Assembly (NCBI GenBank): GCA_038064575.1
Contig: JBBTST010000001.1
Span: 35,650 to 99,649, forward strand
Direction of reading: 5' to 3'
From: Patescibacteria group bacterium
GTDB lineage: Bacteria; Patescibacteriota; WWE3; UBA101185; 2-01-FULL-41-18
Length of the DNA: 64,000 bases
In this document: positions 3,799 through 25,076 of the stretch, piece after piece
Layout of the letters: each line of letters begins with the position of its first letter
Position numbering within the stretch: the stretch's first letter is position 1
Notes under the pieces: model-generated
Seen by the model: the letters and a program-made list of their open reading frames with translations, nothing else
What the model was told of the DNA's origin: nothing
Databases searched by the model: none
Program-made: the position numbers and the translations under genes

Positions 3799-4255
3799 GC
3801 TTAATTTCTAAAATTTTATATTTTAATTTTACTACGGGAGTAGAGACTTCCACCACATCTCCAGCCTTGGTCCCAAGAATAGCTTGCCCTACAGGGGACT
3901 CATTAGAAATCAGGTTTTTAACGGGGTCTGCTTCAAAACTACCTACAATTTTAAAGGAGTCTACCTCACCATCAACCTCTACAATTACAATAGAACCAAC
4001 TCTGACAAATTTAGAATCTTCGTTTTCATCAATTACTTGGCTGCTTCTTAACAAATCCTCAAGTTCAGCTATTTTTTGTTCAATTTGATCACGTTTCTCA
4101 AGTTCAATATCATATTGAGTATTATCCTCATACCCACCCGAATCTATAGCTGTCTTAATATCCTGAGCAATCTGAGGCCTTGCCTTGTTCACCAGAAAGT
4201 CATGCTCTTCCCTGAGTTTCTTAAGACCTTCTTTTGTCAAATAAGATTTTGACAT
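3791..4255 (-). CDS. GreA-family transcript cleavage factor paralog with divergent acidic tip
   Basis: 154 aa with a GreA N-terminal coiled coil and C-terminal FKBP-like domain ('VRVGSIVIVEVDGE', 'SNESPVGQAILGTKAGDVVEV'). The tip reads 'GGYEDNTQY' instead of the canonical 'GDLSENAEY'. Confidence 0.75.
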   Translation of the reverse strand: MSKSYLTKEGLKKLREEHDFLVNKARPQIAQDIKTAIDSGGYEDNTQYDIELEKRDQIEQKIAELEDLLRSSQVIDENEDSKFVRVGSIVIVEVDGEVDSFKIVGSFEADPVKNLISNESPVGQAILGTKAGDVVEVSTPVVKLKYKILEIKHD

Positions 4256-4307: not shown

Positions 4308-4772
4308 TTACTCAATACTTAATACTGTATATGTAATTACACCCATAGGTGCTTCCACTTTGACCTTATCACCAATCTTTCTGCCAAGCAGGGCCAAACC
4401 CAAAGGCGACTCGTGAGAAATCTTTCTATCAAGAGGGTTAGCCTCAGGAGCTCCAACTATTTCAAAATACTCTTCACCCCCATCTACATGTACTCTTACC
4501 TTATTACCAACATTGATTTCACTTTTAACGGTATTAGAAATAACCTCAACATTTTTCACTATTTCCTCTATTTCTCTGATCCTGCTTTCAATAAAACCCT
4601 GTTCATCTCTTGCAGCATCATATTCAGCATTTTCTGAGATATCCCCCATTTCTCTGGCCGACTTTATACGCTCCGCTATAAGAGGTCTTTTAACCTCCAC
4701 AAGCTCTTTATATTCTTTTTTCAAGGACTCAAGTCCTTCTTTTGTAACGTAAACTTTGTCTTTTTTTATCAT
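4308..4772 (-). CDS. greA: transcription elongation factor GreA
   Basis: Canonical tip 'GDISENAEYDAAR' and C-terminal 'SHESPLGLALLGRKIGDKVKV'. The start was moved to the internal Met (MIKKDKVYVTKEGL) that matches the GreA N-terminus. Confidence 0.85.
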   Translation of the reverse strand: MIKKDKVYVTKEGLESLKKEYKELVEVKRPLIAERIKSAREMGDISENAEYDAARDEQGFIESRIREIEEIVKNVEVISNTVKSEINVGNKVRVHVDGGEEYFEIVGAPEANPLDRKISHESPLGLALLGRKIGDKVKVEAPMGVITYTVLSIE

Positions 4773-4973
4773 AAGCAACAAAAAAATTCCCCGTGCCAAA
4801 CATTAAAAGAAATCTATCTTTTTTTGCTTCAAGGGGGAATTTGCAATAGCCTTTACTAAACAACATGTGGAATCCTATCACTCACCAATCTATATGTCAA
4901 GCTCTATAAAGCTTGTCATGACAGCAAATATGCAGGGTGGAATCATGTTTAGGAGTATTATTTAAAAGCATTT

Positions 4974-5405
4974 ATGACTTCAATTTACAATCAGATTATT
5001 TTTACACTTAGCTTCCTGGCAGTTTCATTTGTGCTCTACTTCAGATTTGGTTTTCAGATCTCCAAAATAATACGCAGACGTGTGTGTCCAGTATGTTTTG
5101 CCGTAGGAAGCACCTGGCTGTTTCTGCTGATTTTAAGTTTTACTGGAATTTATGAGGTTAATAGATTATTAATAGCTATGCTTCTTTCAGAAAGTGTTGT
5201 TGGTGTATCTTATCTTGTAGAGGAATTCCTACTTGTTTACAACTTAAAATTTGACGACTATTTACTCAAATTTGGCATAATTTTGTATGGAACAACCTCT
5301 ACTTTAACTTTTGCCTTCATTCATGAACTTATTGGGCTCTTACTTTTTTTACCGGTTATTGTTTTTGGTTTCCTTTCACTAACACCCATTAAAAAACCCA
5401 GTTAA
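4974..5405 (+). CDS. hypothetical polytopic membrane protein
   Basis: 143 aa that is almost entirely hydrophobic. No clear RBS. Confidence 0.35.
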   Translation: MTSIYNQIIFTLSFLAVSFVLYFRFGFQISKIIRRRVCPVCFAVGSTWLFLLILSFTGIYEVNRLLIAMLLSESVVGVSYLVEEFLLVYNLKFDDYLLKFGIILYGTTSTLTFAFIHELIGLLLFLPVIVFGFLSLTPIKKPS

Positions 5406-5730
5406 ACTTGGTAATATAACCACATAAAGGCTTTGATTTATTCCTCTAACAAACAAAACACCCATACAGGCCAGTAACTATTAACTCAAGTTATAACAGC
5501 CTATATAAGGAGAAACAATGCATGTCTTATAGAAATAACTAATAAAGAATCTATTTACTACAGGTTTTATACTTGCTACTATTAAAAATAAAAATGTTCC
5601 CTGATGACGGTTACTATATCCATCTTGAGCAAACACTATCCTTGTGATATTATAGGATACCTTAAAACGTTTATATTTTAGGTATAGCAAAAAGTGGTTG
5701 GAAAACCGCACATTAGAATAAGTTTGTTTT

Positions 5731-8700
5731 ATGGAAAAAATCGATTTATCTATAATAATTCCCTCAAGAAACGAAGAAGGAAATGTAAAACCCTTATATG
5801 AAAGGTTGAATAAAGCTTTTAGAAACTCAAAAATTGAGTATGAAGTTTTGTATATTGTCGACAAATCTGTAGACAATACTTATGAGGAGGCCTCCAAATA
5901 CGAACAGGATGAGAGGTTTATTGTTCACAAAAAGAGGGGGAAACCGGGTAAAGGCTACTCCATTGTTGAAGGCTGTGAATATGCAAAAGGCGAATATGTA
6001 GCTTTCATTGATGCCGATCTTCAATATCCTCCTGAAGCCCTTCCTGAAATGTACAAGATTGCAAAAGAGCATGGAGTTGTAGTAGCCAAGAGAATAACCT
6101 ACAAATCAACATTTTTAAGAAGGTTGGGATCAAGATTTAACGCTTTTTTCTTTGGAAAAGTCTTACTGGGACTTGATTGTGATATCCAATCCGGATTGAA
6201 AGTGTTTAAAAGAGATGTTTTGCAACACCTTGACCTTTCTACCGTTGGTCCCTGGACTTTTGACATTCCTCTCTTACACACCTCTTCTGAACTTGGCTAC
6301 AAAATAGCAACTTATGAAATAGACTTTGTTGACAGGTACACCGGAAATTCAAAGGTGAGCTTTATTAAAACCGGTTTTGGTATAGCTTCCTGCGCACTAA
6401 AAACAAGACTTAAAAAAAGAGCGGTGTATGAAATAAAACCCCTAAACGGAGGGTCAATCGGGGCTGGCATGGTATTTAAAAAACATAGATTTGTAATCCA
6501 TTCAAAGCGTCCGCATCACAATTCCGCACTTCACACTTTTGTTTTCTGGCAAAAGCTTTTCATTTACTGTGTCATCACGGGAGCTTCAGTTGGTCTATAC
6601 ATTGACGCAAGAGTCACCGCTATCATGGTTTTTGCGGTTCTTAACACCTTATATTTTTGTGATGTCATATTTAACCTAATAGTCATTCTTAAAAGTCTGC
6701 ACTTCCCTCCCGAATTAGCCTTTTCAGCAGAAGAGATTAAAAATATAGATGAAAGTAAACTTCCAAAATATACTATTTTATGCCCTTTGTATAAAGAGGT
6801 TGAAATTCTTCCTCACTTTGTAGAAAACGTTTCAAAGCTTGATTATCCAAAAAACAAACTGGAGGTACTTTTGCTTCTTGAGGAGGATGACAAGGACACT
6901 CAGGAAATTGCAAGACTAATGCATCTTCCTAACTATTTTAGAATTGTAGTTGTTCCTCACTCCCAACCAAAGACCAAACCCAAGGCATGCAACTATGGTC
7001 TTCATGTTGCCTCAGGAGAGCTAACAGTAATTTATGACGCAGAAGATCAACCTGAACCATCACAACTCAAAAAGGCTTATCTGGGCTTTAAAAACCTTCC
7101 TGAAAAGGTTGTCTGCTTGCAGGCTAAGCTTAATTACTACAACCCAAGCCACAACTTATTGACTCGCCTTTTCACAGCAGAATACTCTTTATGGTTTGAC
7201 GTGGTGTTACCCGGATATCAATCCATAAACACTGCTATTCCTCTTGGCGGAACTTCCAACCACTTCAAAACCGAAATGTTAAAAAAACTGCATGGGTGGG
7301 ATGCTTTTAATGTAACAGAGGATTGCGATCTTGGTGTAAACCTTTTTAAGCAAGGATACAAAACTGCAATCATAGACTCAACCACCTTGGAAGAAGCAAA
7401 TAGTGATATCAAAAATTGGATTAGGCAAAGATCAAGGTGGATCAAGGGGTATATGCAAACCTACCTGGTTCACATGAGAAACCCGTTAGAACTCATAAAA
7501 ACTTATGGCTGGCACTCTTTCATCTTTCACCTGGTCATTGGCGCACGAATGTATTTCATGCTTATTAACCCAATCTTGTGGCTAATGACCTTTGCTTACT
7601 TTGCTTTGTATGCTCATGTAGGACCCACCATAGAAAGCCTATACCCACCGGCAGTTTTTTACATGGGGGCTTTTTCCTTGGTTGTTGGGAATTTTGTGGC
7701 TCTTTATAACTACATGATAGGCTGTGCCAAGAGAGGGCATTGGAATCTTATCAAATTTGTCTATTTAGTTCCCCTTTATTGGCTTTTGGCAAGCATAGGA
7801 GCAGTAATGGCCTTCTATCAGCTTTTGTTTAAACCTCATTTTTGGGAGAAGACCCATCATGGATTACACCTTAAAAAAGCCAGACAACTAATAAATCTAA
7901 GAGAAGTGCTAATCAACATGCAAGGAGTTTCCATCAGGGCTGCTAAATCCGGAAGTTTTCTGGTAGCGGCCGGTTTAATTACCAATTTTTTAAATTATGT
8001 ATATAATGCTTTTCTCAGTAGAAGGGTTGAAGTTGAAGATTTTGGGTTGATTAGTCTTGTAGGAAGCCTCTTCTTTATTGCAAGCATTCCTTTAAGTGCT
8101 CTTTCCAGAACTATAACATATAAGACCGCTTTCCTGCTTGGAAAGTTCAATCTAGCCCCAAAAACCTTCTGGTCTAACATTAGAAAAATAGCGTTTGTTT
8201 TTGGTATTGCCACAACAATAAGTTGGGTATTGTTAATACCTTACCTCATGAGATATTTTAATACAACCACACCGCTTCCTTTCTTATACTTCACTCCGGT
8301 CTGGGCAATAGGAATTTTGGCTGCCGTAGATAGCGGGTTTATAAGCGGAAATCAAAAATTTAACATTTCAGCAATCCTGATTATTTCAGAAGCTATTGCA
8401 AAACTTGCTTTCACCTTTTTAAGCTTATATCTTAACAACAACGATTTAATCTATGCAGCAATACCCGTTTCACTTGTGGTTCCTTTTGCAATCGGATGGC
8501 TGTACATAGTTAGACAAAAAGTGGACCAGTCTAAAATAAAAGCACTTAATGAAGCTTTATATTTTCCAAAAGACTTTTTTCTTACCTCACTATTCATTAA
8601 ATTTTCAACAGTTTCTTCACTAAGCCTTGATATTCTGATAGTAAAACATATTTTGGTTGCAAAAGACGCCGGATATTATGCCCTGATAGCCTTGGTGGGG

Positions 8701-10395
8701 AAAATGATATTTTTCATAGGGGGGCTTTTCAGTCAATTTATAACTCCTGTAATCAGCAAAGAAGTAGGTGCTAAGGAAAAGACTTCAGGAACTTTTTTCA
8801 AAATACTAGTAAGTTCTGCATTCTTTTCAACAATCTTTTATATAGCACTTGGATTGTTTGGTTCAACAACAGCACCTATACTGCTTGGAAACAAGGTAAT
8901 TCCCGTTACAAAATACCTTCCTCTTTATGGTCTTGCTATGCTTGCTTTTTCAGTTGCCAATAATATAACCGGTTACTATCAGATTAAAAAAATTAACGTT
9001 TTCCCAACCATGAGCCTAATTATAGCCGTAATAGAGCTTGTCCTTTTGAGTAAGTTTAGTAAAGACTTGCAAAGCGTAGTTAACGTTATACTTTTAACAA
9101 GTTTTCTCCAGCTTTTTTGGGCAGTGACCTTTAGCTTGATTATTGAAAACTCTTCATCTATTAGGAAAAACATTGCCTATCTTTATGGATTGTTTGATAA
9201 GAGAACCCCCTCACACAACCCACTTTCCTTAAATATTTTAATTTTTAACTGGAGGGATACAAAACATGTATGGGCGGGTGGCGCAGAGACCTATGTGTTT
9301 GATTTGGCAAAAAACTTAGTGAATAAAGGGCACAAAGTTACAATTTTTTGTGGGAACGACCATAATAATAAAGATTTTGAAGTAATGGAAGGTGTTGAGA
9401 TTTATAGAAGAGGCGGATTTTACACAGTTTACCTATGGGCTGCTATTTACTATTTGACAAAATTTAGATCTAAATTTGACTTTGTAATAGACAGTGTGAA
9501 CGGGATTCCCTTCTTTTCCCCGCTTTATGTGGAAGCACAGAAAGCTGTACTAATACACCATGTACACCAAGAGTATTTCAGAAGGTTTGTAAGATTTCCC
9601 GTAAATCATATAGCTTCATTTGTTGAAAAGTATTTGTTCTCACTAATGTATAGAGATGTTCAAGTGATCACTGTTTCCGAGTCTTCAAAAAAGGACATAG
9701 TCAATATTTTAAATTTTAATGAAGACTCTATAGACATAGTTAACCCCGGAATTAATATAGTAGTAAATAAAAGGTTAAAAAAAACTAAACAACCAACAAT
9801 CACCTATGTTGGAAGGCTTAGACATTATAAAAACATAGATTTGCTTATAAGATCCTTTTCCCAAATTTTAAAAGAGTGGCCAAAAGCTACTCTAGAAATT
9901 GTGGGAGATGGAGAGGCATCAAAAAAATTAAAACTTCTCACAAAAGATTTGAATTTATCCAAAAAGGTGACCTTTCATGGAAAGGTTTCTGATGCTGACA
10001 GAAACAAGGTTTTGACAAAAGCGTGGGTAATGGTGCAACCTTCATCATTTGAAGGATGGGGAATAACCGTAATTGAAGCAAATGCCTGTGGAACTCCTGT
10101 TATTGCCTCTGATGTGGTTGGGCTTAGAGACTCGGTTATTGCCAATAGAACAGGTTTACTATTTAGATTAGAAGACCCAAATGGCCTTACAAATACCCTA
10201 AAAAAGATACTTAGGGATGAAGTATTAAGAAAAGTGCTTTCTGAGTCTGCCAGGCAGTGGTCAGAAAACTTTTCTTGGAGCCAAAAAGCTGACGCAGTGC
10301 AAAGCATCATTCTAAGAAAGATCAACACTAACTACCTACTTAAAACAGATAGTAATCTAGCAAAGATAAAAGTGGAGGTAACAGATGAACGTTAG
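5731..10395 (+). CDS. 1554-aa multi-module glycosyltransferase fusion: Dpm1-like GT2 + processive GT2 synthase + MOP/Wzx-like flippase region + GT4
   Basis: Module 1 (aa 1-230) has 'IIIPSRNEE' and 'AFIDADLQYPPE'. Module 2 (aa ~340-620) has 'IYDAEDQPEP', 'VTEDCDLG' and 'QRSRWIKG'. Aa ~620-1200 contain more than 12 hydrophobic spans with a Wzx-like start 'SGSFLVAAGLITNFLNYVYNAFLSRRVEVEDFGLISL'. The C-terminal module has 'EGWGITVIEANACGTPVIASDVVGLRDSV' (E-x7-E). Confidence 0.9.
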   Translation: MEKIDLSIIIPSRNEEGNVKPLYERLNKAFRNSKIEYEVLYIVDKSVDNTYEEASKYEQDERFIVHKKRGKPGKGYSIVEGCEYAKGEYVAFIDADLQYPPEALPEMYKIAKEHGVVVAKRITYKSTFLRRLGSRFNAFFFGKVLLGLDCDIQSGLKVFKRDVLQHLDLSTVGPWTFDIPLLHTSSELGYKIATYEIDFVDRYTGNSKVSFIKTGFGIASCALKTRLKKRAVYEIKPLNGGSIGAGMVFKKHRFVIHSKRPHHNSALHTFVFWQKLFIYCVITGASVGLYIDARVTAIMVFAVLNTLYFCDVIFNLIVILKSLHFPPELAFSAEEIKNIDESKLPKYTILCPLYKEVEILPHFVENVSKLDYPKNKLEVLLLLEEDDKDTQEIARLMHLPNYFRIVVVPHSQPKTKPKACNYGLHVASGELTVIYDAEDQPEPSQLKKAYLGFKNLPEKVVCLQAKLNYYNPSHNLLTRLFTAEYSLWFDVVLPGYQSINTAIPLGGTSNHFKTEMLKKLHGWDAFNVTEDCDLGVNLFKQGYKTAIIDSTTLEEANSDIKNWIRQRSRWIKGYMQTYLVHMRNPLELIKTYGWHSFIFHLVIGARMYFMLINPILWLMTFAYFALYAHVGPTIESLYPPAVFYMGAFSLVVGNFVALYNYMIGCAKRGHWNLIKFVYLVPLYWLLASIGAVMAFYQLLFKPHFWEKTHHGLHLKKARQLINLREVLINMQGVSIRAAKSGSFLVAAGLITNFLNYVYNAFLSRRVEVEDFGLISLVGSLFFIASIPLSALSRTITYKTAFLLGKFNLAPKTFWSNIRKIAFVFGIATTISWVLLIPYLMRYFNTTTPLPFLYFTPVWAIGILAAVDSGFISGNQKFNISAILIISEAIAKLAFTFLSLYLNNNDLIYAAIPVSLVVPFAIGWLYIVRQKVDQSKIKALNEALYFPKDFFLTSLFIKFSTVSSLSLDILIVKHILVAKDAGYYALIALVGKMIFFIGGLFSQFITPVISKEVGAKEKTSGTFFKILVSSAFFSTIFYIALGLFGSTTAPILLGNKVIPVTKYLPLYGLAMLAFSVANNITGYYQIKKINVFPTMSLIIAVIELVLLSKFSKDLQSVVNVILLTSFLQLFWAVTFSLIIENSSSIRKNIAYLYGLFDKRTPSHNPLSLNILIFNWRDTKHVWAGGAETYVFDLAKNLVNKGHKVTIFCGNDHNNKDFEVMEGVEIYRRGGFYTVYLWAAIYYLTKFRSKFDFVIDSVNGIPFFSPLYVEAQKAVLIHHVHQEYFRRFVRFPVNHIASFVEKYLFSLMYRDVQVITVSESSKKDIVNILNFNEDSIDIVNPGINIVVNKRLKKTKQPTITYVGRLRHYKNIDLLIRSFSQILKEWPKATLEIVGDGEASKKLKLLTKDLNLSKKVTFHGKVSDADRNKVLTKAWVMVQPSSFEGWGITVIEANACGTPVIASDVVGLRDSVIANRTGLLFRLEDPNGLTNTLKKILRDEVLRKVLSESARQWSENFSWSQKADAVQSIILRKINTNYLLKTDSNLAKIKVEVTDER

Positions 10396-11350
10396 AGCAA
10401 AAAAACTCAAAAATGAAAAGGCATTTGAAACCCTTGGTATCAAGGAGGTTTTTTTATACAAATTAAGAGATTTGATAAGTGGCCAAGCCGTCACAAAAGA
10501 ACCCCCCCATATACCTGATTTTAACCTTTTAGAGACAGTTAAACCGTTTGGGTCTGTAGGCAGCTATTTTATGGGAATATTTAGTAACACCAAAGAAGAG
10601 AAAGTTTTTGTAAAAACTTGGCGAGGAAACCACAAGGATTTAAACTACCTAACATTAATAAATGAAATAAGCTTCTATAAATTCTTTGAGAAAATGAGCA
10701 TTTCCCAAATAAAAACTCCAAAGATCAGGGCTATACATAATAAGTCATCAGAATTGTCAGTGGTATATGAATATATAGAAGGGAAAAAACTTGAAGAAAG
10801 CAGTACGGAACTAAAATTAAAAACTTATTGGGCAGTTATCAGCTTTCTTGACAACATTTCAGCAGATAAAAATTTGCTCATAAATTTTCCAAAAAGAACT
10901 TATTTTTCATATCTAGTTACTTTTTTACTAATACTTCCCTTAGCCCTAATAAATTATCCTTCAAAAGCGGCTAAGCTTATTAGTTCTGGAATTCTTTTTA
11001 CAAAGCTTATTACTATTAAAAATAATTTTCTTCCCTTAAGCTTATGCCATAGGGACTTAAATATGAGAAACATCCTAATTTCAAATAACACATCCTACCT
11101 CATAGACTTTCAATACACTCTCTTAACACTAAAAGAGTTTGAAATAGCCTCCACCATTAGAAGCCACATCAGGGAAAAGGAGTTTTTAGAAAAAATGCTA
11201 GCCAAAGTTAGAAACTCAAACAGTTTCAACACACAAATCTTAAGGCAAATGCTTATTTATTATGCAATTATGGGTCTTTGTGACAAACGCTTTAGAAAAG
11301 AAAGGGTAGAAGATTTTTTTGACTGTTTAAATTTGGCTTCTAACATATGA
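10385..11350 (+). CDS. protein-kinase-like fold phosphotransferase (Kdo/WaaP/APH-type catalytic loop)
   Basis: 'LCHRDLNMRNILISNNTSYLIDFQY' matches the HxDLxxxN catalytic loop and the (I/L)DF motif. It overlaps the upstream stop by 11 nt and the downstream start by ATGA. Confidence 0.55.
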   Translation: MNVRAKKLKNEKAFETLGIKEVFLYKLRDLISGQAVTKEPPHIPDFNLLETVKPFGSVGSYFMGIFSNTKEEKVFVKTWRGNHKDLNYLTLINEISFYKFFEKMSISQIKTPKIRAIHNKSSELSVVYEYIEGKKLEESSTELKLKTYWAVISFLDNISADKNLLINFPKRTYFSYLVTFLLILPLALINYPSKAAKLISSGILFTKLITIKNNFLPLSLCHRDLNMRNILISNNTSYLIDFQYTLLTLKEFEIASTIRSHIREKEFLEKMLAKVRNSNSFNTQILRQMLIYYAIMGLCDKRFRKERVEDFFDCLNLASNI

Positions 11351-14300
11351 TTAAAACTGTAACAATAGGCATACCAGCCTATAATGAAGAAAAAAACATT
11401 AAAACCCTTCTGGAATCCCTTTTAAACCAAAAGCAGGAGGGTTGGGACCTTGATAAGATAATAATTTATTCCGATGCAAGTACTGATAACACCAACTCTA
11501 TTGTTGGAGAATTCACAAATAAAAGCCTTGTCCTTATTAAAGGCGCAAAGAGAAAAGGGATGTGTTATGGCCAAAAAACAATAAGCAAAATCACAAATTC
11601 CGACTTTCTTGTTTTTATAAATGCTGATGTACTACCTCAAGATGAAAATCTCATTACTAATCTTATAAAAAATGCGGATGACAAAACAGGTGTAGTTGGA
11701 GGTAAAGTTGTCCCTGCCAAAGCAGAGGGCTTCATGGAAAAAGTTTATAAATTCAACCATGAACTCAAGACAGCCATTTATGAAGATCCAAAAATGAGCG
11801 GTTCAATTTATCTTTGCCATGGGAGAATCAAGTGCCTAACCAGACAAATGTATACCAAAACCAGATATGAAGATGTAACGGCAGAGGATGCCTTTTTATA
11901 TTTGGAGTGCAAAAGACTAGGCTTAAAGTTTGTGTATGCCAAGAATGCCACTGTCATTTTTAGATCCCCTACCCATCTAGGTGACTACTTTAAACAAAGT
12001 TCAAGATTCATTGCGGGAAAGAAGGATCTTTATAAGTACTTTGATAAAATTAAGGTTGATAAAAACTACTTAATTCCAAAATCTATACTTGTGAAAAATA
12101 TATTAAGAGGGTTTATCAGAAATCCAATTCTAACAAGCATTAATGCAGCAACGTTTGGATTAAGTAATTTAAAAGCTCTTTCTGGCAAAACCAGTAATAA
12201 TAAAATTTTGTGGGATATGTCTTACTCGTCAAAAAGACTTATGCTTTCCAACTTGGAGTCGCCAAAAAAACTCAAGCTTGATGTTATAACCAAGTTTTTT
12301 TATCCGGTTAACGCTGGCATTGAAATGAACACTTTAGAAACCTACTCATTGTTAAATAAGAGGGAATTTGATGTAACAATTCACACAACTAAAGATTCTC
12401 TAACTAAAAAAAATGAGTTCAGAGAGAGCGATAATATAAAAGGTTTACCTATCAAAAGATATAAAAGCGGTAAGGTAGGCTTTCTTCCTGCAATAGATCT
12501 TAATAAAACAGATATTTTATGCTTACACAATTTTAATATTCACCCAATGGTTTATTACTTATTCCTATCCTGGGTTAAAAAAGTTATAAGAAGAAGAAAC
12601 TACAAGGTAATTCTAACCCCTCATGGGGGTTTCACCCCTGAGTGGAGAGTTTTTCCTCTGCACATTAAAATCCCAAAATTGTTAATTCACCGGCTTATTG
12701 GTAACTATTTAATAAACAATGGGGCTGATGCAATCAGGGCTGTATCTGAATGGGAAAAAGAAGAGATGATAAAAGCGGGGGTGAGAAAAGATTTAATAGA
12801 GGTAATCTCAAACGGCCTAGAAAATGAGGCTTTTGAGGACATTGATCATCTTGCATCAACTAAAGTTAGAGAGGAAGTGGGAAGCCTTGGGAAATATATA
12901 ATTCAGGTAGGCAGAATATTTCCAATCAAAAACTATCAAACCACTATCAAAGCTCTTAAGCTTTTACCTGAAGATTTAAGCTTTGCGATTTTGGGTCCTA
13001 TTGGAGATGATAACTATTTCCAAAAGTTGAAAGACTTAACAAAAACTCTTGGAGTGGAACAAAGAGTAAAGTTTCTTGGAGAAGCAAGAGGAATTGATAA
13101 ATACTATCTAATCAAAAAGTCCATAGCCATGGTACACATGGCAATTTGGGAAAGCTTTTGCAATGTAGTTCATGAAGCTATGAGTCAGGGTGTTATCTGT
13201 CTTGTAGCTAAAAACACAGCATTACCCTATCTTATAAAGGATAAAATTAATGGCTTTTGCATACCAACCCGGGACAGTAAAAAATTGGCAGACAGAATTA
13301 ATTTCATCTTAGACAGCAAAAATACATTCGTTGTAGACAAAATTAAAAAAACAAACCTGGAAACTGCTAGAGATCATTCATGGTCAAACACCTCACATAA
13401 AATGGGTGAGCTCTATAATGATACTTTTCTTGGAAAAAGGACTCATCAGGGATCATTCCTATTCAGTTTTCTGTTTTTTTTGACTGTGGCTGTTATTCTA
13501 GCCTCCTCGGTTAGAGGTATTCATGGAAACCCTTCTATAAATGACCTGAATTCAAAAAAATGGACGGATAAGGGCCCTCTTGAACTGTCACCTGAAAGAG
13601 GAAGATTTGCCCTAACATATTCACTGGTGGAAGAAAAGTCCTTCACATTTTCAGTTCCGGTGGCAAGATTTGCGACTCCTGATCTAGGTTTCAAAAACGG
13701 TAAATATGTCTCTATTTTTGCCCCGGGTATATCAGCTCTTGTAATCCCAGGCTACCTTTTTGGAAGATATCTTGGTGCTTCTCAATATGGAACTTTTCTT
13801 ATTATAGCTTTTTTTTCACTGCTTAATGCTGTCTTGATTAAAAAAATAACCAGAGAGTTGGGGGGTGGAGAAAGCGCTTCTTTTATAGCTGCACTAACTT
13901 ACCTCTTTGCAACTCCGGCCTTTGCATATGCTGTAAGTTTATACCAACACCATGTATCAGTCTTTCTCATATTATCCTCAATTTATATTATCTTAACTAA
14001 AAAGAGCAACTGGTGGTTACTAGTAATTTGGTTTTTATTTACCTTATCAATACCTATAGATTATCCAAATCTATTTCTTATGCTTCCTATCATGCTTGTG
14101 GCAGCAGAAAGGATAATTTATATAAAAAAGGAAGAGAAAAAAATAAAGATTACTTTTAAGACACTTGCTTCTTTGACTTTAATTTCCGCGCTAATACCTG
14201 TGGTAATGTTTCTTTGGTACAACAAGATGACTTATGGAAACCCCTTCCAGTTGGCAGGGACCGTAAGCCACATTCAGGCTATAGATGCCTCAGGCAACCC

Positions 14301-14994
14301 AACACTTTCAAGCTCTTCAAATAGCCAACAAACTCTTGATCTTAACAGAAGAAGGTCAGCTCTTAATTTTTTTAAAACAAGACATGAATTAAATGGTTTT
14401 TATGTATTTTTCCTGAGTAAAGATAGGGGTTTACCTTATTACACACCTATCAGCCTGCTTGCTTTAATAGCTCTTCCTTTTTTTATAAAGCGCAACCAAA
14501 AGATTGGGGCTGTATTTTTTTCAATTGTGGCAATTAATATCCTTCTATACTCAATGAGAGGAGATGTATGGGGTGGCTGGGCATTTGGAGCAAGATATCT
14601 TATACCTTCTTATGCTATTCTTTCAATAGTTCTTGGTGTTTATCTTTCTGGGAACAGAAACAAATTTGTTCTACTTTTTGTAACTTGTCTTTTTGCTTAT
14701 TCTTCCTATGTAAATACAATAGGCGCCTTAACTTCAAATGCTATTCCTCCTCAGGTTGAGGTTCTGGCACTGGAAAAACTTTCCGGCAGGGAAGAAAAAT
14801 ACACATTTCATAGAAGTCTGGATTTACTAAAGGCTAATTCATCAAAATCTTATATATATAATTCTTATTTGAAAGATAAACTTTCCGCCTTAGAGTATTT
14901 TAAGATTGTGCTTTTCTCAATTTACACACTATTTACAATTGTGATGCTAAAACAACTTTTTAAAAAGAAAGATGTATATGAGAGGCTTAATTGA
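11347..14994 (+). CDS. 1215-aa fusion: GT2 + GT4 + C-terminal GT-C-like polytopic membrane glycosyltransferase domain
   Basis: N-terminus 'IGIPAYNEEKNIKTLLESLLNQ' and 'FINADVLPQDE' (GT2). The middle region 'HEAMSQGVICLVAKNTALPYLIKDKINGF' is GT4-like. The C-terminal ~500 aa have more than 10 TM spans with 'YVSIFAPGISALVIPGYLFGRYLG' (ArnT/PMT-like). Confidence 0.85.
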   Translation: MIKTVTIGIPAYNEEKNIKTLLESLLNQKQEGWDLDKIIIYSDASTDNTNSIVGEFTNKSLVLIKGAKRKGMCYGQKTISKITNSDFLVFINADVLPQDENLITNLIKNADDKTGVVGGKVVPAKAEGFMEKVYKFNHELKTAIYEDPKMSGSIYLCHGRIKCLTRQMYTKTRYEDVTAEDAFLYLECKRLGLKFVYAKNATVIFRSPTHLGDYFKQSSRFIAGKKDLYKYFDKIKVDKNYLIPKSILVKNILRGFIRNPILTSINAATFGLSNLKALSGKTSNNKILWDMSYSSKRLMLSNLESPKKLKLDVITKFFYPVNAGIEMNTLETYSLLNKREFDVTIHTTKDSLTKKNEFRESDNIKGLPIKRYKSGKVGFLPAIDLNKTDILCLHNFNIHPMVYYLFLSWVKKVIRRRNYKVILTPHGGFTPEWRVFPLHIKIPKLLIHRLIGNYLINNGADAIRAVSEWEKEEMIKAGVRKDLIEVISNGLENEAFEDIDHLASTKVREEVGSLGKYIIQVGRIFPIKNYQTTIKALKLLPEDLSFAILGPIGDDNYFQKLKDLTKTLGVEQRVKFLGEARGIDKYYLIKKSIAMVHMAIWESFCNVVHEAMSQGVICLVAKNTALPYLIKDKINGFCIPTRDSKKLADRINFILDSKNTFVVDKIKKTNLETARDHSWSNTSHKMGELYNDTFLGKRTHQGSFLFSFLFFLTVAVILASSVRGIHGNPSINDLNSKKWTDKGPLELSPERGRFALTYSLVEEKSFTFSVPVARFATPDLGFKNGKYVSIFAPGISALVIPGYLFGRYLGASQYGTFLIIAFFSLLNAVLIKKITRELGGGESASFIAALTYLFATPAFAYAVSLYQHHVSVFLILSSIYIILTKKSNWWLLVIWFLFTLSIPIDYPNLFLMLPIMLVAAERIIYIKKEEKKIKITFKTLASLTLISALIPVVMFLWYNKMTYGNPFQLAGTVSHIQAIDASGNPTLSSSSNSQQTLDLNRRRSALNFFKTRHELNGFYVFFLSKDRGLPYYTPISLLALIALPFFIKRNQKIGAVFFSIVAINILLYSMRGDVWGGWAFGARYLIPSYAILSIVLGVYLSGNRNKFVLLFVTCLFAYSSYVNTIGALTSNAIPPQVEVLALEKLSGREEKYTFHRSLDLLKANSSKSYIYNSYLKDKLSALEYFKIVLFSIYTLFTIVMLKQLFKKKDVYERLN

Positions 14995-16612
14995 CAAAAT
15001 CTTAACAATTGAACTATCACTAGATGCTTCCGTTCCAGAAAGATTTTTCAGACCTTTAGAGAAACATTTGTTTCTGCTAGTTTGTATTGTGCTGTCCCTA
15101 ATTTCTATTTCAAGTTTTTATTATTTTCATGAAAATAACTTAACTCTTGCTTATAATGACGCCAGATCACATCTCAATATTGGAAGAAGAGTTGTAGAAG
15201 GGCTTAAGCCTGGTATTGCTCAATTAGGCTCTGTTTGGCTGCCATTACCTCATGTTCTAATGATTCCAACCATTTGGAATGACTTCATGTGGCACACTGG
15301 ACTAGCAGGGGCATCCGTCAACATGATTGCCTTTGTAATAACGGGAATGTTTATTTTCTTATACCTTAAGGAACTCAAAGTTGGAACTTTGGGAAAAGTT
15401 AGTGCAGTACTAGTCTTTATTCTAAACATAAACATTTTATATCTTCAATCCACTGCAATGACTGAATTACTCCTTATTTTGACCATGACAGCCTCTTGCT
15501 ATGAGATGATGCAATATTTTAAAAAAGATGACATCCTGCATCTTATAAGAGGCGCCTTTTGGATAATGCTCACCACACTTACCAGATACGACGGGTGGTT
15601 TTTACTTGCAGTTTCTTCCTTTTTGATTGCATTAAAAACTCTCAGAAAAAGAGACTATAAAACCACTGAGGGAACATTACTTCTTTTTTGTACTCTGGCA
15701 GGTCTTGGGGTTGTCATGTGGTTTGCATGGAACCTCCTGATTTTTAAGGATCCCTTTTATTTTGCTTTTGGCCCTTTCTCCGCAAAAGCCCAGCAGGATC
15801 AAATTGAAAGTTCAGGTATGCTAATAACAAAAGGGGATTGGTTTCAATCCTTCAAATTTTATCTGTACGCGCTAATGTTTAATTCCGGTGCCTTTCAAAC
15901 CCTTTTAACATTTTTTGGCTTTTTTATTTTGTGGAAAGATAAAAAAGTTATAGCTGACATAAAAATGTCTTCAGTTCTGCTACTTTCACCCCTAATATTT
16001 AACATACTCGCTCTTTACTTAGGCCACTCAGTTCTTTTTATCCAAGGTTTATCAGGAAACACTTGGTTTAATGTAAGATATGGAGTTTTGTTAGCCCCTA
16101 CAATTGCAATAATAATAGGCTTTACTATAGACAGGCTAAAGGCTGTAAGACTGCCTTTGATAGGATTATTGACCTTGGTTACATTCTTTTCATTTACAAG
16201 CTTTGATGCAGTTACCATTGATGATGCACGTGTAGGTTCTAGCCAAAAAAATGTGGCAGAAGTTAGTGGTTGGTTAAGTGAACACGCAAAAAATGAGAAG
16301 GGTTTTATTCTTATTTCCGCAGCGTCTCATGATGCCATAATTTTTTCTTCAGGGCTTCCTATGAAACGCTTTATACATGAAGGAACAGGCCTCTACTGGG
16401 AATCAGCAACAAGCCTACCTGACAGATGGGCAAGATGGATAATAATGCGTACTCATGATGATAACGATTTAACATTTAAACTTGTCAAATTAACCCCTGG
16501 TCTTGAGAGATATAATAAAGTGGGTTCCTTCCCTTTTGCGGACATCTATGAAATCAAACCTGAGTATGTATCACAACTAAACACTGAACCCATATTAGGA
16601 AAGCAAAAATAG
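14972..16612 (+). CDS. polytopic membrane protein, GT-C-fold glycosyltransferase-like
   Basis: 546 aa with about 12 TM segments and a C-terminal soluble region. It overlaps the upstream gene by 23 nt. The fold assignment comes from topology and context only. Confidence 0.5.
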   Translation: MYMRGLIDKILTIELSLDASVPERFFRPLEKHLFLLVCIVLSLISISSFYYFHENNLTLAYNDARSHLNIGRRVVEGLKPGIAQLGSVWLPLPHVLMIPTIWNDFMWHTGLAGASVNMIAFVITGMFIFLYLKELKVGTLGKVSAVLVFILNINILYLQSTAMTELLLILTMTASCYEMMQYFKKDDILHLIRGAFWIMLTTLTRYDGWFLLAVSSFLIALKTLRKRDYKTTEGTLLLFCTLAGLGVVMWFAWNLLIFKDPFYFAFGPFSAKAQQDQIESSGMLITKGDWFQSFKFYLYALMFNSGAFQTLLTFFGFFILWKDKKVIADIKMSSVLLLSPLIFNILALYLGHSVLFIQGLSGNTWFNVRYGVLLAPTIAIIIGFTIDRLKAVRLPLIGLLTLVTFFSFTSFDAVTIDDARVGSSQKNVAEVSGWLSEHAKNEKGFILISAASHDAIIFSSGLPMKRFIHEGTGLYWESATSLPDRWARWIIMRTHDDNDLTFKLVKLTPGLERYNKVGSFPFADIYEIKPEYVSQLNTEPILGKQK

Positions 16613-16633
16613 ATTTTACGGTATAATCATTTG

Positions 16634-17872
16634 ATGAACAAAATTAAGACTATTATAAGAATATTTGTACTTTTGGCTTTCCTGTTTGGACAGGAAGCGG
16701 CCTTAGGATCACCGTGGTGGGACTTTCAATCTATAGATACTATGAAGTATTCAAGAGATCTTGCCAGAGAAAAAAAAGATAGTAAAGAGTTTGAGGAATC
16801 ACTAGCACTTCAAATTAAGGACATAACAGCAACAGGCGCAACTCACGTAGCTATAGCAACTCCTTATGATGAGGAATTTATTCCGTTCTTAAAGATGTGG
16901 GTTAAGGCTGCCAGGGAGAATGAGTTAAAGATCTGGTTCAGGGGCAATTTTTCCGGTTGGGAGGGTTGGTTTGACTACCCAAAAATATCAAGGGAGGAGC
17001 ACATTGAAAAAACCAAAAACTTCCTTAATAAAAATAAAGACTTATTTGAAGATGGAGATGTTTTTTCCGCTTGCCCCGAATGTGAAAATGGTGGCCCTGG
17101 GGACCCCAGAAGCAATGGTGATATAGAAGGACACAGAAAATTTTTGATAGAGGAATATAATATAACCTCAAAGTTCTTTCTTAATTCCAGAATAAAAGTC
17201 AAAACTACATATAACTCAATGAACGGAGATGTAGCAAGACTTATTATGAATCCTGAAACAACGCAAGCGCTAGGAGGAGTAGTTGTAGTTGATCATTATG
17301 TAAAAAACCCTGAACAGTTAGCAAAAGATGTTAAAGAGCTTGCAACTATCACTAAAGGCAAAGTAGTTTTAGGGGAATTTGGGGCTCCAATACCTGATAT
17401 CCATGATTGGAGTGATGATGTAAGACAAGCCCGATGGCTTTCAGATACTCTCTCAAAACTTTCTACAATTCCAGAATTGGAGGGTCTTAGCTACTGGACT
17501 AATTTAGATGGGTCCACCCAAATCTGGAATAAACCGGGAAACCCAAGGAAAGCCGCTTTGACTCTTGAATCTTATTACAAACCTATGGAATACAAAGTGA
17601 GGTTTATTAATGAACTTGATGAACCAATTATGGGAGTTTTAATACAAAGCCAAAGAAAACAGTCCGTATCAAATTCAAAAGGAGAAACGGGAATTGCTTT
17701 TCTGGAATCGGACACAAAAGCCCATGCCCTTTCGGGAGAATACATTAGAAAAGAGTTGGACCTTAAGAAAAACACGGAGCAAGAAACGATTGTACTTAAA
17801 AAAAAGAACGAGGATTTAATTTTTATGTTCAAAAAGTTCTTCAAAAAATTTTGGGGTAACTTAAGCGAGTAA
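16634..17872 (+). CDS. secreted clan GH-A (GH5/GH113-like) glycoside hydrolase candidate
   Basis: Signal peptide 'MNKIKTIIRIFVLLAFLFGQEAALG'. 'VLGEFGAP' is a nucleophile-type GEFG motif and 'CPECENGG' a candidate acid/base NE(x)G motif. The start was set at the ATG after the TTG. Confidence 0.45.
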   Translation: MNKIKTIIRIFVLLAFLFGQEAALGSPWWDFQSIDTMKYSRDLAREKKDSKEFEESLALQIKDITATGATHVAIATPYDEEFIPFLKMWVKAARENELKIWFRGNFSGWEGWFDYPKISREEHIEKTKNFLNKNKDLFEDGDVFSACPECENGGPGDPRSNGDIEGHRKFLIEEYNITSKFFLNSRIKVKTTYNSMNGDVARLIMNPETTQALGGVVVVDHYVKNPEQLAKDVKELATITKGKVVLGEFGAPIPDIHDWSDDVRQARWLSDTLSKLSTIPELEGLSYWTNLDGSTQIWNKPGNPRKAALTLESYYKPMEYKVRFINELDEPIMGVLIQSQRKQSVSNSKGETGIAFLESDTKAHALSGEYIRKELDLKKNTEQETIVLKKKNEDLIFMFKKFFKKFWGNLSE

Positions 17873-17961
17873 GTTTCTATCTAAATAAAGTTGGTTTGCA
17901 CATGCCTATAATTGATGGTACATTACTATAAGATAATTGTTTCCTGCTCAACTCATATATT

Positions 17962-18630
17962 ATGGAAAAAAGCAGGATTTTTTTGTCACTTGCTATAACT
18001 TTATACATAGCTTTCAACTCTCAACTAGTAGGGCTTAATGCTTATGCCTCAGAAAATAACTCGGAAAACACCTCTATAACTAAACCTAATTTCCCGTCAT
18101 GTGAAGATCCGGAAGGCCAGCTTAAGGCTTCTTATCCCAATGGAACACATGGGGTTCCCGGGGATACAACCACATACACAGGAAGAGACACAGTTTACAC
18201 CCTTTCTGACAACACTCTCATTCAATGTCTTTGTACCGACCAAGGAAAAGGAATCCAAACTAATTGGTGGAAAGTATCAAGCCTGACTGAAAATGAAATC
18301 AATCAGCTAAAAGCGGAAGGTTGGATTTTTGTCCCAAACGGTTCTGCTTGGGGCTTGGAAGAAACTACTTATATGGCTAAAAATGAAAGCTTTTCTTGCG
18401 GTGATCGGGAAGGAGATGATGAGGACAATGATGAAGACAAAAGCTCGCAAGATAAAAATGACAAATATGATAACTCTGACCAGGGTCAAATCCTTGCAAC
18501 AGCTACCAAAGGAATTGGAGGGATATTAGGGCTTGCCGCCACAGGAAATGCTTCTGTTATTTACCTATTCATAACAGTCGGAGCATTAGCGCTTGTACTT
18601 TCAATTCTTCTAAATAGAAAAGATTCTTAG
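17962..18630 (+). CDS. sortase-substrate surface protein with C-terminal LAATG sorting signal
   Basis: A signal peptide and a Cys-containing domain are followed by an acidic D/E/N-rich linker. The C-terminus is 'LAATGNAS' + a hydrophobic span + 'NRKDS'. Confidence 0.6.
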   Translation: MEKSRIFLSLAITLYIAFNSQLVGLNAYASENNSENTSITKPNFPSCEDPEGQLKASYPNGTHGVPGDTTTYTGRDTVYTLSDNTLIQCLCTDQGKGIQTNWWKVSSLTENEINQLKAEGWIFVPNGSAWGLEETTYMAKNESFSCGDREGDDEDNDEDKSSQDKNDKYDNSDQGQILATATKGIGGILGLAATGNASVIYLFITVGALALVLSILLNRKDS

Positions 18631-18642
18631 AGGTGAAAATCT

Positions 18643-19203
18643 ATGAAAAAAGTATTCTCCAATATTTTCCTAGTAATAGCAGTCATTTGTTTTTTATCAG
18701 CCACCTTTCTCATCTACAAAAAATATCAAAATAAAAACGTGTATGTAGATCAAAAAACTGTTCAAGAGCTGTATTCAGGGCAAGCAATTTATAAAAAACC
18801 GGTTTTTATTAAAATTAGAACACTTGATATAAGCCTTCCCATCATTGAATCTTCAATTAAGAAAGGGGTTTGGGAAACAAATGACAAAGGCGTTTCTTAC
18901 TTACTCAATTCGCCCCTACCCGGAGAATCAGGAAATAGCATACTATACGGACACAACTTTCCGGGCCTTTTGGGAAAGCTTAAAAATATTCAAAGAGACA
19001 ATGAAATTGAAATTTTATTTAATAACGGAGAGGTAAAAAGATTTGTGGTTAAGGCTACCAGTACCACAGGATCAAAAAGTTTACACATACTAAAACAAAC
19101 CCAGGACACAAGAATTACTATTTACACTTGTACAGGCTTTATGGATTCTAAAAGGTTTGTAGTAACAGCAGTTCCTAAAAAAGACACTCAAGTTTTGAAT
19201 TGA
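18643..19203 (+). CDS. sortase (class E-like)
   Basis: N-terminal TM anchor, catalytic His in 'LYGHNFPG', 'ITIYTCTG' (TLxTC) and a downstream Arg ('KRFVVTAV'). GAGGTGA RBS at 18628-18634. Confidence 0.8.
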   Translation: MKKVFSNIFLVIAVICFLSATFLIYKKYQNKNVYVDQKTVQELYSGQAIYKKPVFIKIRTLDISLPIIESSIKKGVWETNDKGVSYLLNSPLPGESGNSILYGHNFPGLLGKLKNIQRDNEIEILFNNGEVKRFVVKATSTTGSKSLHILKQTQDTRITIYTCTGFMDSKRFVVTAVPKKDTQVLN

Positions 19204-19247
19204 ACTTCCTTGTATTAACTTAAAATCTAACTTAGTATTTTCTTAAC

Positions 19248-19742
19248 ATGTTTAAAACTGCCAATCAATACGGATTTACTCTGGTAGAGCTTCTCACTGT
19301 CATGGGCATGTTGGTTATGCTTGCAACCATAATTCTTGTACTTATAAATCCTTCAAAAATGTTGGAACAAGCAAGAACTGCAGCAGCTTATGAGTCGCTA
19401 GCTGCAATTGCAAAGGCTGCTCACACATTCTCAAATGAAAACGGATACTTTCCCTCTGATGTGAATAGAAATCTCCCACAAGAGTTTATTGAGTATCTAT
19501 CACCAGGGGCATGGCCAAATGGGCCTTTTCCGGGCTCAGTTTACGATTGGGACAACTGGGAAACCCAGACCTGCTGGGATGGCTCTACAGGCATAATTCA
19601 GGTCACCTTGAGGCAAATTAACGGCTACCAGGGCAAAAACAACTACACAATCTACTATGTGATACAGGGTATAGGAGTGCCCCACTGCAGTACCACTACC
19701 GTAAAAGGAAAATGTATCAACTGTGATAGTAGATACCCCTAA
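19248..19742 (+). CDS. type IV pilin-like protein (prepilin N-terminal methylation domain)
   Basis: 'QYGFTLVELLTVMGMLVMLATIIL' is a class III signal (G|FTLVE) followed by a hydrophobic helix. The C-terminal Cys pair matches the pilin D-region. Confidence 0.8.
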   Translation: MFKTANQYGFTLVELLTVMGMLVMLATIILVLINPSKMLEQARTAAAYESLAAIAKAAHTFSNENGYFPSDVNRNLPQEFIEYLSPGAWPNGPFPGSVYDWDNWETQTCWDGSTGIIQVTLRQINGYQGKNNYTIYYVIQGIGVPHCSTTTVKGKCINCDSRYP

Positions 19743-19747
19743 ACCCT

Positions 19748-21475: not shown

Positions 21476-21491
21476 CTTACCCTAAACCATT

Positions 21492-25048: not shown

Positions 25049-25076
25049 AAAATTACAACGAATTTTCAATTCATTT

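Follow-up and report, generated by a model that had tools for sequence, protein, structure and literature searches.

A conserved Patescibacteria locus of fused glycosyltransferases as a candidate system for cell-surface glycan assembly

We analyzed a 64,000-nt stretch of a Patescibacteria contig (JBBTST010000001.1; hereafter "the window", to whose positions all coordinates refer). The subject of this report is a locus of five consecutive open reading frames (ORFs), all on the + strand, that encode predicted glycosyltransferases (GTs), a kinase and an exported enzyme of the glycoside hydrolase (GH) type. The window DNA derives from a groundwater Patescibacteria population. The five genes are as follows:

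5731-10395, + strand: ORF1, 1554 aa, a protein of four modules
10385-11350, + strand: ORF2, 321 aa, a protein-kinase-like kinase of the APH family
11347-14994, + strand: ORF3, 1215 aa, a GT2, a GT4 and a probable GT-C module
14972-16612, + strand: ORF4, 546 aa, a predicted GT-C-fold membrane glycosyltransferase and the most conserved gene of the locus
16631-17872 (TTG start, 413 aa) or 16634-17872 (ATG start, 412 aa), + strand: ORF5, a predicted exported enzyme of clan GH-A

The first four genes overlap at their junctions by 11 nt (ORF1/ORF2), 4 nt (ORF2/ORF3) and 23 nt (ORF3/ORF4). These overlaps, like the ORF coordinates, are exactly those given in an earlier description of this DNA made from its letters alone (hereafter, the sequence-only reading). 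The distance of 21 nt that it gave between ORF4 and the hydrolase gene holds for the ATG at 16634, the start used in public gene calls, and shrinks to 18 nt with the TTG. The same reading had raised the prospect that the long ORFs are assembly chimeras, which was not borne out. An identical ORF1, followed by the same downstream genes, is found in Hainich H41 contigs in ENA, in Logan assemblies ERR3858137/8 and in a 168-kb contig of a metagenome-assembled genome (MAG) at NCBI, so the long ORFs are not artefacts of one assembly and neither ORF1 nor ORF3 is a chimera; ORF4 and ORF5 are called from later start codons in the independent assemblies. We also rejected the description of the locus as a horizontally acquired "island": its GC content (0.35-0.39) resembles that of the rest of the window, and it is a conserved feature of the lineage, not an insertion. 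A scan of positions 4800-20200 for promoters and terminators returned counts at or below shuffle expectation and is therefore uninformative on the limits of the operon.

ORF1 alone joins four modules in one polypeptide:

5731..6480, + strand: module 1 (aa 1-250), predicted polyprenyl-phosphate GT2 of the GtrB/DPMS/ArnC kind ("GT2a"; Pfam Glycos_transf_2, residues 7-165)
6523..7905, + strand: module 2 (aa ~265-725), predicted membrane-embedded, cellulose-synthase-like GT2 (Pfam Glyco_tranf_2_3 and Glyco_trans_2_3)
7936..9144, + strand: module 3 (aa ~736-1138), block of 12 transmembrane (TM) segments weakly resembling Wzx/MOP flippases
9238..10395, + strand: module 4 (aa ~1170-1554), GT4 of the GT-B fold (Glycos_transf_1, 2.3e-43; Glyco_transf_4, 2.8e-17)

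By predicted family, GT2a is of the polyprenyl-phosphate glycosyltransferase type. The seven best-matching PDB sequences are all DPMS, GtrB or ArnC (1.6e-15 to 7.7e-10), among them DPMS 5mlz (1.6e-15), GtrB 5ekp (1.5e-14) and ArnC 9hwj (1.3e-11), and the DADLQYPPE at residues 94-102 aligns with DADLQHPPE in DPMS and DADLQDPPE in GtrB. The NCBIfam models ArnC and PgfS each match at about 5e-16, under their equivalog cut-offs. Module 2 fits the processive membrane GT2 synthases as judged from its D, DxD, TED and QxxRW motifs and its predicted flanking TM helices. Its GT2 domain spans residues 345-626 (Pfam), with hydrophobic segments by hydropathy at 273-323 before it and at 596-624, 637-659 and 673-700 after it; its best PDB match is PcManGT (6yv7, 5e-8), an archaeal N-glycan enzyme, and BcsA (4hg6) matches at 4e-6. 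The NCBIfam model PgaC_IcaA (TIGR03937) aligns over profile positions 24-393 of 407 and scores 91 bits versus a cut-off of 422, from which we take the module to work like the PgaC/IcaA family yet not to be a member of it. The GT4 module scores 148 bits with Glycos_transf_1 and 64 bits with Glyco_transf_4. The motifs of all three transferase modules (DADLQ 94; DAED 436, TED 529 and QRSRW 566; EX7E 1441) are invariant across 13 homologues.

Module 3 may be a Wzx-like flippase block, an assignment that we make tentatively. Alignment-averaged hydropathy, a crude method, marks twelve hydrophobic segments between residues 736 and 1138, and the reference TM counts for the MOP superfamily are 12 (Wzx) or 14 (MurJ). 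Among 12 homologues of the block, four match Pfam Polysacc_synt at E <= 0.01 (best 4e-7) and one matches Polysacc_synt_3.

The kinase encoded by ORF2 passes the cut-off of Pfam APH (29.3 bits, cut-off 23.2) and carries HRDLNMRN at residue 222 and IDF at residue 240. Of the "Kdo/WaaP-like kinase" of the sequence-only reading, the kinase fold thus stands, but not the Kdo label: the Kdo kinase model PRK01723 gives 20.3 bits versus a cut-off of 142, with the match confined to the catalytic loop. Nothing in the PDB matches ORF2 below E 0.4.

ORF3 is the second giant protein of the locus and consists of three modules, the first of which brings the number of GT2 modules in the locus to three, where two had been listed before:

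11347..12216, + strand: module 1 (aa 1-290), soluble GT2 (Pfam Glycos_transf_2, 1.8e-19)
12244..13431, + strand: module 2 (aa ~300-695), GT4 (Glycos_transf_1, 5.8e-27, together with Glyco_transf_4)
13444..14994, + strand: module 3 (aa ~700-1215), polytopic membrane domain, probable GT-C ("GT-C(A)")

Each of these modules is usually a gene of its own. In 59 related loci surveyed for their gene content, the GT2 corresponds to stand-alone genes of ~305 aa (84 copies in 47 loci), and the GT4 to stand-alone genes of ~393 aa (48 copies in 44 loci, a count that pools GT4s resembling either GT4 module of the window); GT-C(A) is a separate gene of ~500-550 aa in nearly all relatives. The ORF3 GT4 has Pfam scores of 95 and 43 bits, an EX7E motif at residue 602 and a match to NCBIfam Agl16 at 1.1e-57, under the cut-off of that model. 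No other full-length GT2-GT4-GT-C protein like ORF3 was present among the best 150 matches from 1.8 billion representatives searched, which did include the pairwise fusions GT4-GT-C, GT2-GT4, X-GT-C and GT-C-GT-C. ORF3 thus appears to be a lineage-specific fusion of three normally separate genes; of the two polypeptides, of 1554 and 1215 aa, into which the sequence-only reading saw almost everything packed, both are real, but the shorter one is peculiar to this lineage.

The C-terminal domain of ORF3 matches the NCBIfam model of LA_3751/3752 putative glycosyltransferases at 2.6e-17 (62.8 bits versus a cut-off of 200). Two of 32 GT-C(A) orthologues match Pfam PMT_2 (2.6e-8), and one matches a TMEM260-like family. 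Aligned with the ORF4 profile by hhalign, GT-C(A) gives a probability of 17% (E 1.4e-3, 277 columns) with a common GDxW..F..RY motif, and its first TM helix is followed by a 61-aa loop bearing an invariant PD. Neither sequence nor profile searches with this domain found a match in the PDB.

ORF4 and ORF5 have no match in Pfam or NCBIfam (for ORF5, none in Pfam even at E <= 10), and both were therefore structure-modelled. For ORF4, sequence and profile searches of the PDB were also without a match. The ORF4 model is a polytopic fold that can be superimposed on solved GT-C enzymes, which argues for a GT-C-fold membrane glycosyltransferase of a family without a Pfam or NCBIfam model. Directly after its first TM helix, in a long first extracytoplasmic loop, lies an invariant Y61-N-D63-A-R-S-H67, and the Asp of this loop may be catalytic. 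Among the best 120 of 2481 clusters, ORF4 proteins are 57-67% identical. We considered and rejected membership of ORF4 in the oligosaccharyltransferases (STT3/PglB/AglB), as it lacks the WWDYG motif; a motif scan found no WWD in either ORF3 or ORF4.

The ORF5 model shows a (beta/alpha)8 barrel followed by a C-terminal beta-sandwich, consistent with an exported glycoside hydrolase or transglycosylase of clan GH-A. In the model, E149 and E151 follow strand 4 and E248 ends strand 7; both sites are invariant, and their position and conservation make these Glu candidate catalytic residues. The family model of GH5 (Pfam Cellulase) does not match ORF5.

Taken module by module, the sequence-only reading was largely upheld. 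Profile searches placed its polyprenyl-phosphate-sugar-synthase-like GT2 (through the DPMS/GtrB/ArnC structures and DADLQxPPE), its processive GT2 synthase (through DAED, TED, QRSRW and the BcsA and PcManGT matches), its two GT4 modules (both above Pfam cut-offs) and the APH kinase, while the ORF4 and ORF5 models account for a GT-C enzyme and for the secreted clan GH-A-like hydrolase. Its Wzx/MOP block retains the twelve segments and the matches of some homologues, but the window copy itself falls below threshold; of its two GT-C-like modules, ORF4 has the modelled fold and the C-terminus of ORF3 is probable only.

The locus is widespread. The ORF1 architecture recurs at 47-52% identity over 97-100% of its length in nearly all of 120 listed protein clusters, the named ones belonging to Gottesman-, Woese-, Curtiss- and Amesbacteria and to Microgenomates, and a scan of one genome per species confirmed ORF1 relatives at a minimum of 585 loci (at least 585; individual loci are referred to by L-numbers below). 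Many MAG records that carry the locus (L011, L013, L014, L016, L018, L020, L021 and others) are titled "uncultured Gammaproteobacteria", "Pseudomonadales" or "Bdellovibrionales"; these titles are probably taxonomic mislabels.

For a synteny map, the window genes were placed by tblastn on 80 of the confirmed loci; in 52 of them, 9 kb or more of sequence follows the ORF1-like gene. Among these 52, GT-C(A) is present in 48 and ORF4 in 46, the two being adjacent in 41; ORF5 comes right after ORF4 in 32, while a secreted protein that we call D1 and a sortase, both described below, were placed in 17 and 16. The conserved order is ORF1, a variable block, GT-C(A), ORF4 and ORF5, often followed by an LAxTG protein and a sortase, and so the synteny that the sequence-only reading had proposed to look for in related genomes is there. 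The variable block between ORF1 and the GT-C pair measures 2-9.5 kb. Across the 59 loci surveyed, it contains CE4 deacetylases (21 loci), kinases (17) and PIG-L deacetylases (12), as well as GT2, GT4, methyltransferase, epimerase and aminotransferase genes, with no extra polytopic proteins. The ORF2-type kinase, placed in 16 of the 52 mapped loci, is accordingly an accessory component. A variable glycosyltransferase centre held between conserved machinery is the pattern of surface-glycan loci. Some loci (L096, L097, L102, L104-L106, L111, L112) have two or three tandem ORF4-like paralogues in place of GT-C(A) and ORF4, followed by one or two ORF5-like genes, which means that the GT-C complement is itself variable.

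Because all the domain families involved are common ones, the genes could in principle be accidental neighbours from unrelated pathways, or the product of an assembly artefact. This explanation is refuted by the synteny across hundreds of species and the many recurrent module fusions, beside the identical ORFs in independent assemblies, and we give it practically no credence.

The fusions are informative beyond this point, since conserved order and recurrent fusion together indicate that the parts are functionally linked. ORF1 is split into a GT2a-synthase protein and a MOP-GT4 protein in several lineages, and in some relatives the MOP block is a separate gene of ~470-500 aa or is absent. GT-C(A) is fused to ORF4 in L073, while L023 and L078 encode a single protein with the kinase, a CE4 domain and GT-C(A). 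The fusion of GT2a to the synthase is found in nearly all loci examined; the exceptions, L014 and L040, look like truncated or frameshifted gene calls.

A much smaller version of the system emerged from a metagenome scan that was seeded with divergent ORF4-like proteins and covered 80 loci. In about 16 of these 80, a GT2a-synthase protein of 724-763 aa is directly followed by an ORF4-like GT-C. The same minimal pair occurs in the genome-set loci L082 and L079, and DADLQ, TED and QxxRW are intact in the copies checked from both. In L079 (161-9455, - strand), two tandem cassettes, with GT2a-synthase proteins of 744 and 736 aa and ORF4-like proteins of 519 and 590 aa, and a third, partial synthase lie beside a main-type locus and represent a local amplification. 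Nine of ten long ORF4-like proteins consist of a GT-C part and a C-terminal Pfam Cellulase (GH5) domain, and PMT_2 exceeds its cut-off in 7 of the 11 long ones scanned. The main-type loci L033 and L071 also encode such a GT-C-GH5 fusion, without a separate ORF5. In L089 and L090, the cassette is followed by a gene of the GtrA family (PF04138; 3e-19 and 9e-20). The minimal system is thus a lipid-sugar GT2 fused to a synthase, plus a GT-C fused to GH5, in some cases with GtrA, and it ties together the lipid-sugar GT2, the synthase, the GT-C and the GH. The sequence-only reading had seen in the locus a combination of two logics, that of a lipid-linked donor used outside by GT-C enzymes and that of a synthase with its hydrolase; the stand-alone cassettes in relatives support this combination.

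We also asked whether ORF5 and the GH5 domains that ORF4-like proteins carry are orthologous, and rejected this on an hhalign probability of 1.7%. By sequence comparison, the two appear to be analogous members of one clan in the same position, without detectable sequence homology.

Our preferred interpretation, which we judge slightly likelier to be right than wrong, is that the locus encodes a transmembrane glycosylation system of several components, with a membrane polysaccharide synthase at its core, serving cell-surface glycan assembly of a Microgenomates type; it probably builds the main cell-surface glycan. From the module folds and families, the conserved motifs, the gene order and the domain fusions, we infer as follows which substrates are used, in which direction the pathway runs, what each GT-C does, and what the product is and where it ends up. 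At the inner face of the membrane, GT2a would transfer a sugar from its nucleotide-activated form to undecaprenyl phosphate (Und-P, or C55-P), and the synthase of ORF1 module 2 would polymerise and extrude a backbone glycan. The GT4 of ORF1 and the GT2 and GT4 of ORF3 would extend the lipid-linked sugar to a lineage-dependent oligosaccharide; this oligosaccharide or a precursor of it may be phosphorylated by the ORF2 kinase. The 12-TM Wzx-like block of ORF1 would flip the lipid-linked glycan, as GtrA would do for a single sugar in minimal versions. Outside, the C-terminus of ORF3 and ORF4 would use the polyprenyl-phosphate-linked glycan as donor and decorate, polymerise or attach it to the backbone or wall, and ORF5, working physically next to ORF4, would trim, release or transglycosylate the polymer. 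The source contig also has, ~9 kb upstream of ORF1, a gene for the undecaprenyl-diphosphatase BacA (433-1203 of L001), so the organism recycles the lipid carrier that this scheme needs.

Several observations count against this interpretation. The MOP block of the window scores 25.7 bits with Pfam Polysacc_synt, under the gathering cut-off of 28.2, and a profile search of the PDB with it gave no match; a crude hydropathy count places three hydrophobic segments between the synthase domain and this block, which leaves the parity of the predicted topology uncertain. The C-terminal domain of ORF3 is probably a GT-C, but by weak profile evidence. The missing homology between ORF5 and GH5 means that the Rosetta-stone argument from the GT-C-GH5 fusions covers analogous members of a clan and not orthologues, and the GtrA gene was seen after two minimal cassettes only. 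In the loci we saw no priming phosphoglycosyl transferase, Wzy polymerase or LCP ligase; specifically, neither a priming enzyme of the WbaP/WecA type nor Wzy is among the recurrent genes of the 59 loci, and either may lie elsewhere in the genome. Finally, the synthase could elongate a lipid-linked primer instead of making a separate backbone.

This last point leads to a distinct account, in which the Und-P-sugar is a primer that the synthase elongates and translocates, an ORF4-type GT-C transfers the chain en bloc and the GH sizes it; the branch formed by the MOP block, the GT4s and GT-C(A) would then add a second chain or a linkage unit. The near-constant fusion of GT2a to the synthase is what one would expect here, as are the lack of a priming phosphoglycosyl transferase in the loci and the fact that the minimal GT2a-synthase and GT-C pair usually has no adjacent flippase gene in the contigs examined, which fits translocation by the synthase. 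On the other hand, flippases may be encoded elsewhere in the genome, and the GtrA genes in L089 and L090 argue for a flipped Und-P-monosaccharide as the GT-C donor. We know of no precedent for a GT2 synthase that elongates an Und-P-monosaccharide primer, which also counts against this account, and we regard it as unlikely.

The interpretation of the locus as a synthase-centred glycan assembly system can be set against known pathways, each of which it resembles in part. Synthase-dependent systems such as Bcs (cellulose) and Pga/Ica (poly-N-acetylglucosamine) come with dedicated hydrolases, namely BcsZ, PgaB and, in Psl, PslG. Like Bcs and Pga, the locus has a membrane GT2 with D, DxD, TED and QxxRW and predicted channel helices, a dedicated extracytoplasmic GH and, in 21 of the 59 loci, CE4 genes; unlike them, it has no PilZ/c-di-GMP module, no partner of the PgaD/BcsB type and no outer-membrane components, and it is coupled to a branch of lipid-linked sugars and GT-C enzymes. 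The GT-C enzymes of mycobacterial arabinogalactan and lipoarabinomannan synthesis (EmbA/B/C, AftA/B/D) use decaprenyl-phosphate sugars. They show no sequence relationship to the GT-Cs here, obtain their donor by another route and work without a synthase or GH partner. The Wzx/Wzy-dependent pathway, with a priming transferase and Wzy in the locus, does not fit the recurrent genes of the 59 loci.

Closer analogues exist among systems that use lipid-linked sugars. Streptococcal GacIJKL (a four-component system) and the lactococcal Wps proteins (WpsA/B, WpsC-F, the Wzx WpsG, WpsI/WpsJ) make oligosaccharides on C55-P with the help of two GT-C enzymes, and in Wps the oligosaccharide is joined to a separately made backbone (PMC9574508). 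As in Gac/Wps, a GT-A enzyme would load C55-P, cytoplasmic GTs would extend it, and a 12-TM flippase of the Wzx family (a weak match here) and two outward-facing GT-Cs (there one polymerase and one transferase, here both predicted) complete the set, with a conserved machinery and a set of GTs that varies between strains. Unlike in Gac/Wps, the backbone maker here is a fused, cellulose-synthase-like GT2 and not an ABC-transporter-dependent rhamnan pathway; a GH-A hydrolase is part of the system itself and in relatives is joined to the GT-C; single proteins of 1554 and 1215 aa combine the modules; the GT-C families have no sequence model; and the host is a Patescibacterium. No GacJ/WpsB-like activator or Wzz-like gene was identified, the small ORFs of main-type loci not having been specifically screened.

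The minimal cassette is most like GtrA/GtrB/GtrC and CsbB/GtcA/YfhO (PMC8035078, PMC5836110, PMC7389260, PMC11127046), with its GtrB-type GT2, its GT-C and, in L089 and L090, GtrA. It differs from both in that the GtrB-type module is fused to a QxxRW synthase in nearly every locus and the GT-C is often fused to GH5, and in the window a Wzx-like block takes the place of GtrA. A C55-P-sugar synthase, a flippase and a GT-C, which together characterise three- and four-component systems, are co-encoded both in the window, given its weak Wzx-like block, and in L089 and L090. In Haloferax volcanii, the Agl pathway comprises AglJ/G/I/E acting on dolichyl phosphate, AglD with AglR and AglS, and AglB (PMC3871713). 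The shared features, as predicted for the locus, would be a glycan on a polyprenyl monophosphate, a DPM1-type GT2 at the start, a Wzx-like flippase (again a weak match here) and two GT-Cs with different roles; the best family matches of two window modules (Agl16, PcManGT) are archaeal N-glycosylation enzymes, and the locus also resembles the AglD/AglR/AglS branch (PMC3871713). Unlike Agl, it lacks the WWDYG signature, includes a synthase and a GH and belongs to a bacterium with a sortase.

That sortase is encoded directly downstream of the locus, after a surface protein:

17962..18630, + strand: D1, secreted protein: signal peptide, a linker that is acidic or rich in S/G, and LAATG, a TM helix and a basic tail at the C-terminus
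18643..19203, + strand: sortase (Pfam Sortase, 9e-18), 13 nt downstream of D1

All 19 D1 homologues with a complete C-terminus have L[AP]xTG, a TM helix and a basic tail, while a 20th (L062) ends in the linker; their linkers are rich in S, G or DGR[ST]. D1 and the sortase follow ORF5 here and in many other loci, and this bears on a further explanation, namely that the locus glycosylates proteins, its PMT_2-like GT-Cs moving a lipid-linked glycan onto secreted or sortase-anchored proteins such as D1, an LAxTG substrate with just such linkers. Relatives of ORF4 match the PMT_2 and PMT families, GT2a matches PgfS, the ORF3 GT4 has Agl16 as its best match and the synthase has PcManGT as its best match in the PDB. 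There are also precedents in streptococcal GtrB/PgtC2, Pgf O-glycosylation and archaeal Agl N-glycosylation (PMC12041528, PMC3871713). However, neither GT-C has a WWDYG-type motif or MIR domains, a polysaccharide substrate is what the QxxRW synthase and the fusion of a GH5/GH-A domain to the GT-C suggest, and D1 and the sortase accompany about a third of the genome loci and none of the minimal cassettes in the contigs examined. We therefore consider protein glycosylation rather unlikely as the function of the locus.

The surroundings of the locus contain other genes that we record for completeness. A pilin-like protein (19248-19742, + strand; N_methyl 21.1 bits versus a cut-off of 21.2) begins 45 nt after the sortase and may be in the same transcription unit. 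The genes at 19748-24146 (- strand), for a DsbD-TM/AhpC-TSA/thioredoxin fusion of 575 aa, a thioredoxin of 173 aa and a 709-aa protein without a Pfam match, look like an extracytoplasmic thiol-redox cluster adjoining the surface-protein genes. Further downstream, an ApbE flavin transferase, a ferric-reductase-like membrane protein and an unknown protein of 218 aa lie in a row at 29897-32444 (- strand), and near them is a multicopper oxidase (35900-37495, + strand); such redox equipment is unexpected for Patescibacteria. An FkbM-type methyltransferase ORF (24230-25135, - strand) and an ORF with DKNYY repeats (25005-26228, + strand) overlap by 131 nt as mechanically listed, and one of the two start codons has probably been called too early.

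Just upstream of the locus are two tandem paralogues of the GreA/GreB elongation factor family (154 and 163 aa; 3791-4255 and 4308-4799, - strand), the first of which is overlapped by 8 nt by a 454-aa ORF without a Pfam match (2434-3798). A protein with four TM helices, a CPVC motif and no Pfam match is encoded at 4974-5405 (+ strand), 325 nt upstream of ORF1. We considered this gene as a GtrA-type flippase and rejected it, since it has no Pfam match at E <= 10 and no homologue in 160 related loci. A 167-aa protein that also has four TM helices and CPVC is encoded near the minimal cassette of L091 (9270-9773, - strand), with no detected similarity to the protein at 4974-5405.

Returning to the locus as a candidate glycan assembly system, we found no description of it in our literature searches, and a recent review of these bacteria mentions no envelope glycan pathway. 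The view that no textbook operon matches therefore stands as far as descriptions of the locus go, but its logic is close to that of the streptococcal and lactococcal systems (PMC9574508). Every domain family in it is known and its logic has a published analogue, so the system is not categorically new. What appears to be undescribed in the literature searched is a lipid-sugar synthase that is almost always joined to a processive synthase, together with the obligatory GT-C/GH-A partner of this fusion, the two large GT-C families without a sequence model and the conservation of the locus across a whole class of uncultivated bacteria. It is conceivable, and in our estimate improbable, that the Und-P-sugar synthase and the QxxRW synthase invariably fused to it, always accompanied by a GT-C that often carries GH5, define an unrecognised mode of assembly, in which the synthase elongates and translocates a chain primed on a lipid monophosphate and a GT-C/GH-A pair then transfers it en bloc or cross-links it. 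If true, this would be a new mode beside the known Wzx/Wzy, ABC-transporter, classical synthase and sucrase routes, and would make the major envelope polymer of a whole Patescibacteria class.

To our knowledge, almost nothing is known of the envelope in Microgenomates or in most Patescibacteria, and we know of none of them in cultivation. With its conserved machinery and variable glycosyltransferase centre across hundreds of species, the locus offers the best entry now available to the question of which structures these cells present to hosts and phages. Two large GT-C families that lack a sequence model also come from it, as does a natural set of fusions in which a lipid-sugar synthase, processive synthase, GT-C and GH-A enzyme are joined in various ways. 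The minimal cassette of two or three genes is small enough for heterologous reconstitution, and could serve to test whether GT-C enzymes decorate or ligate polymers made by a synthase.

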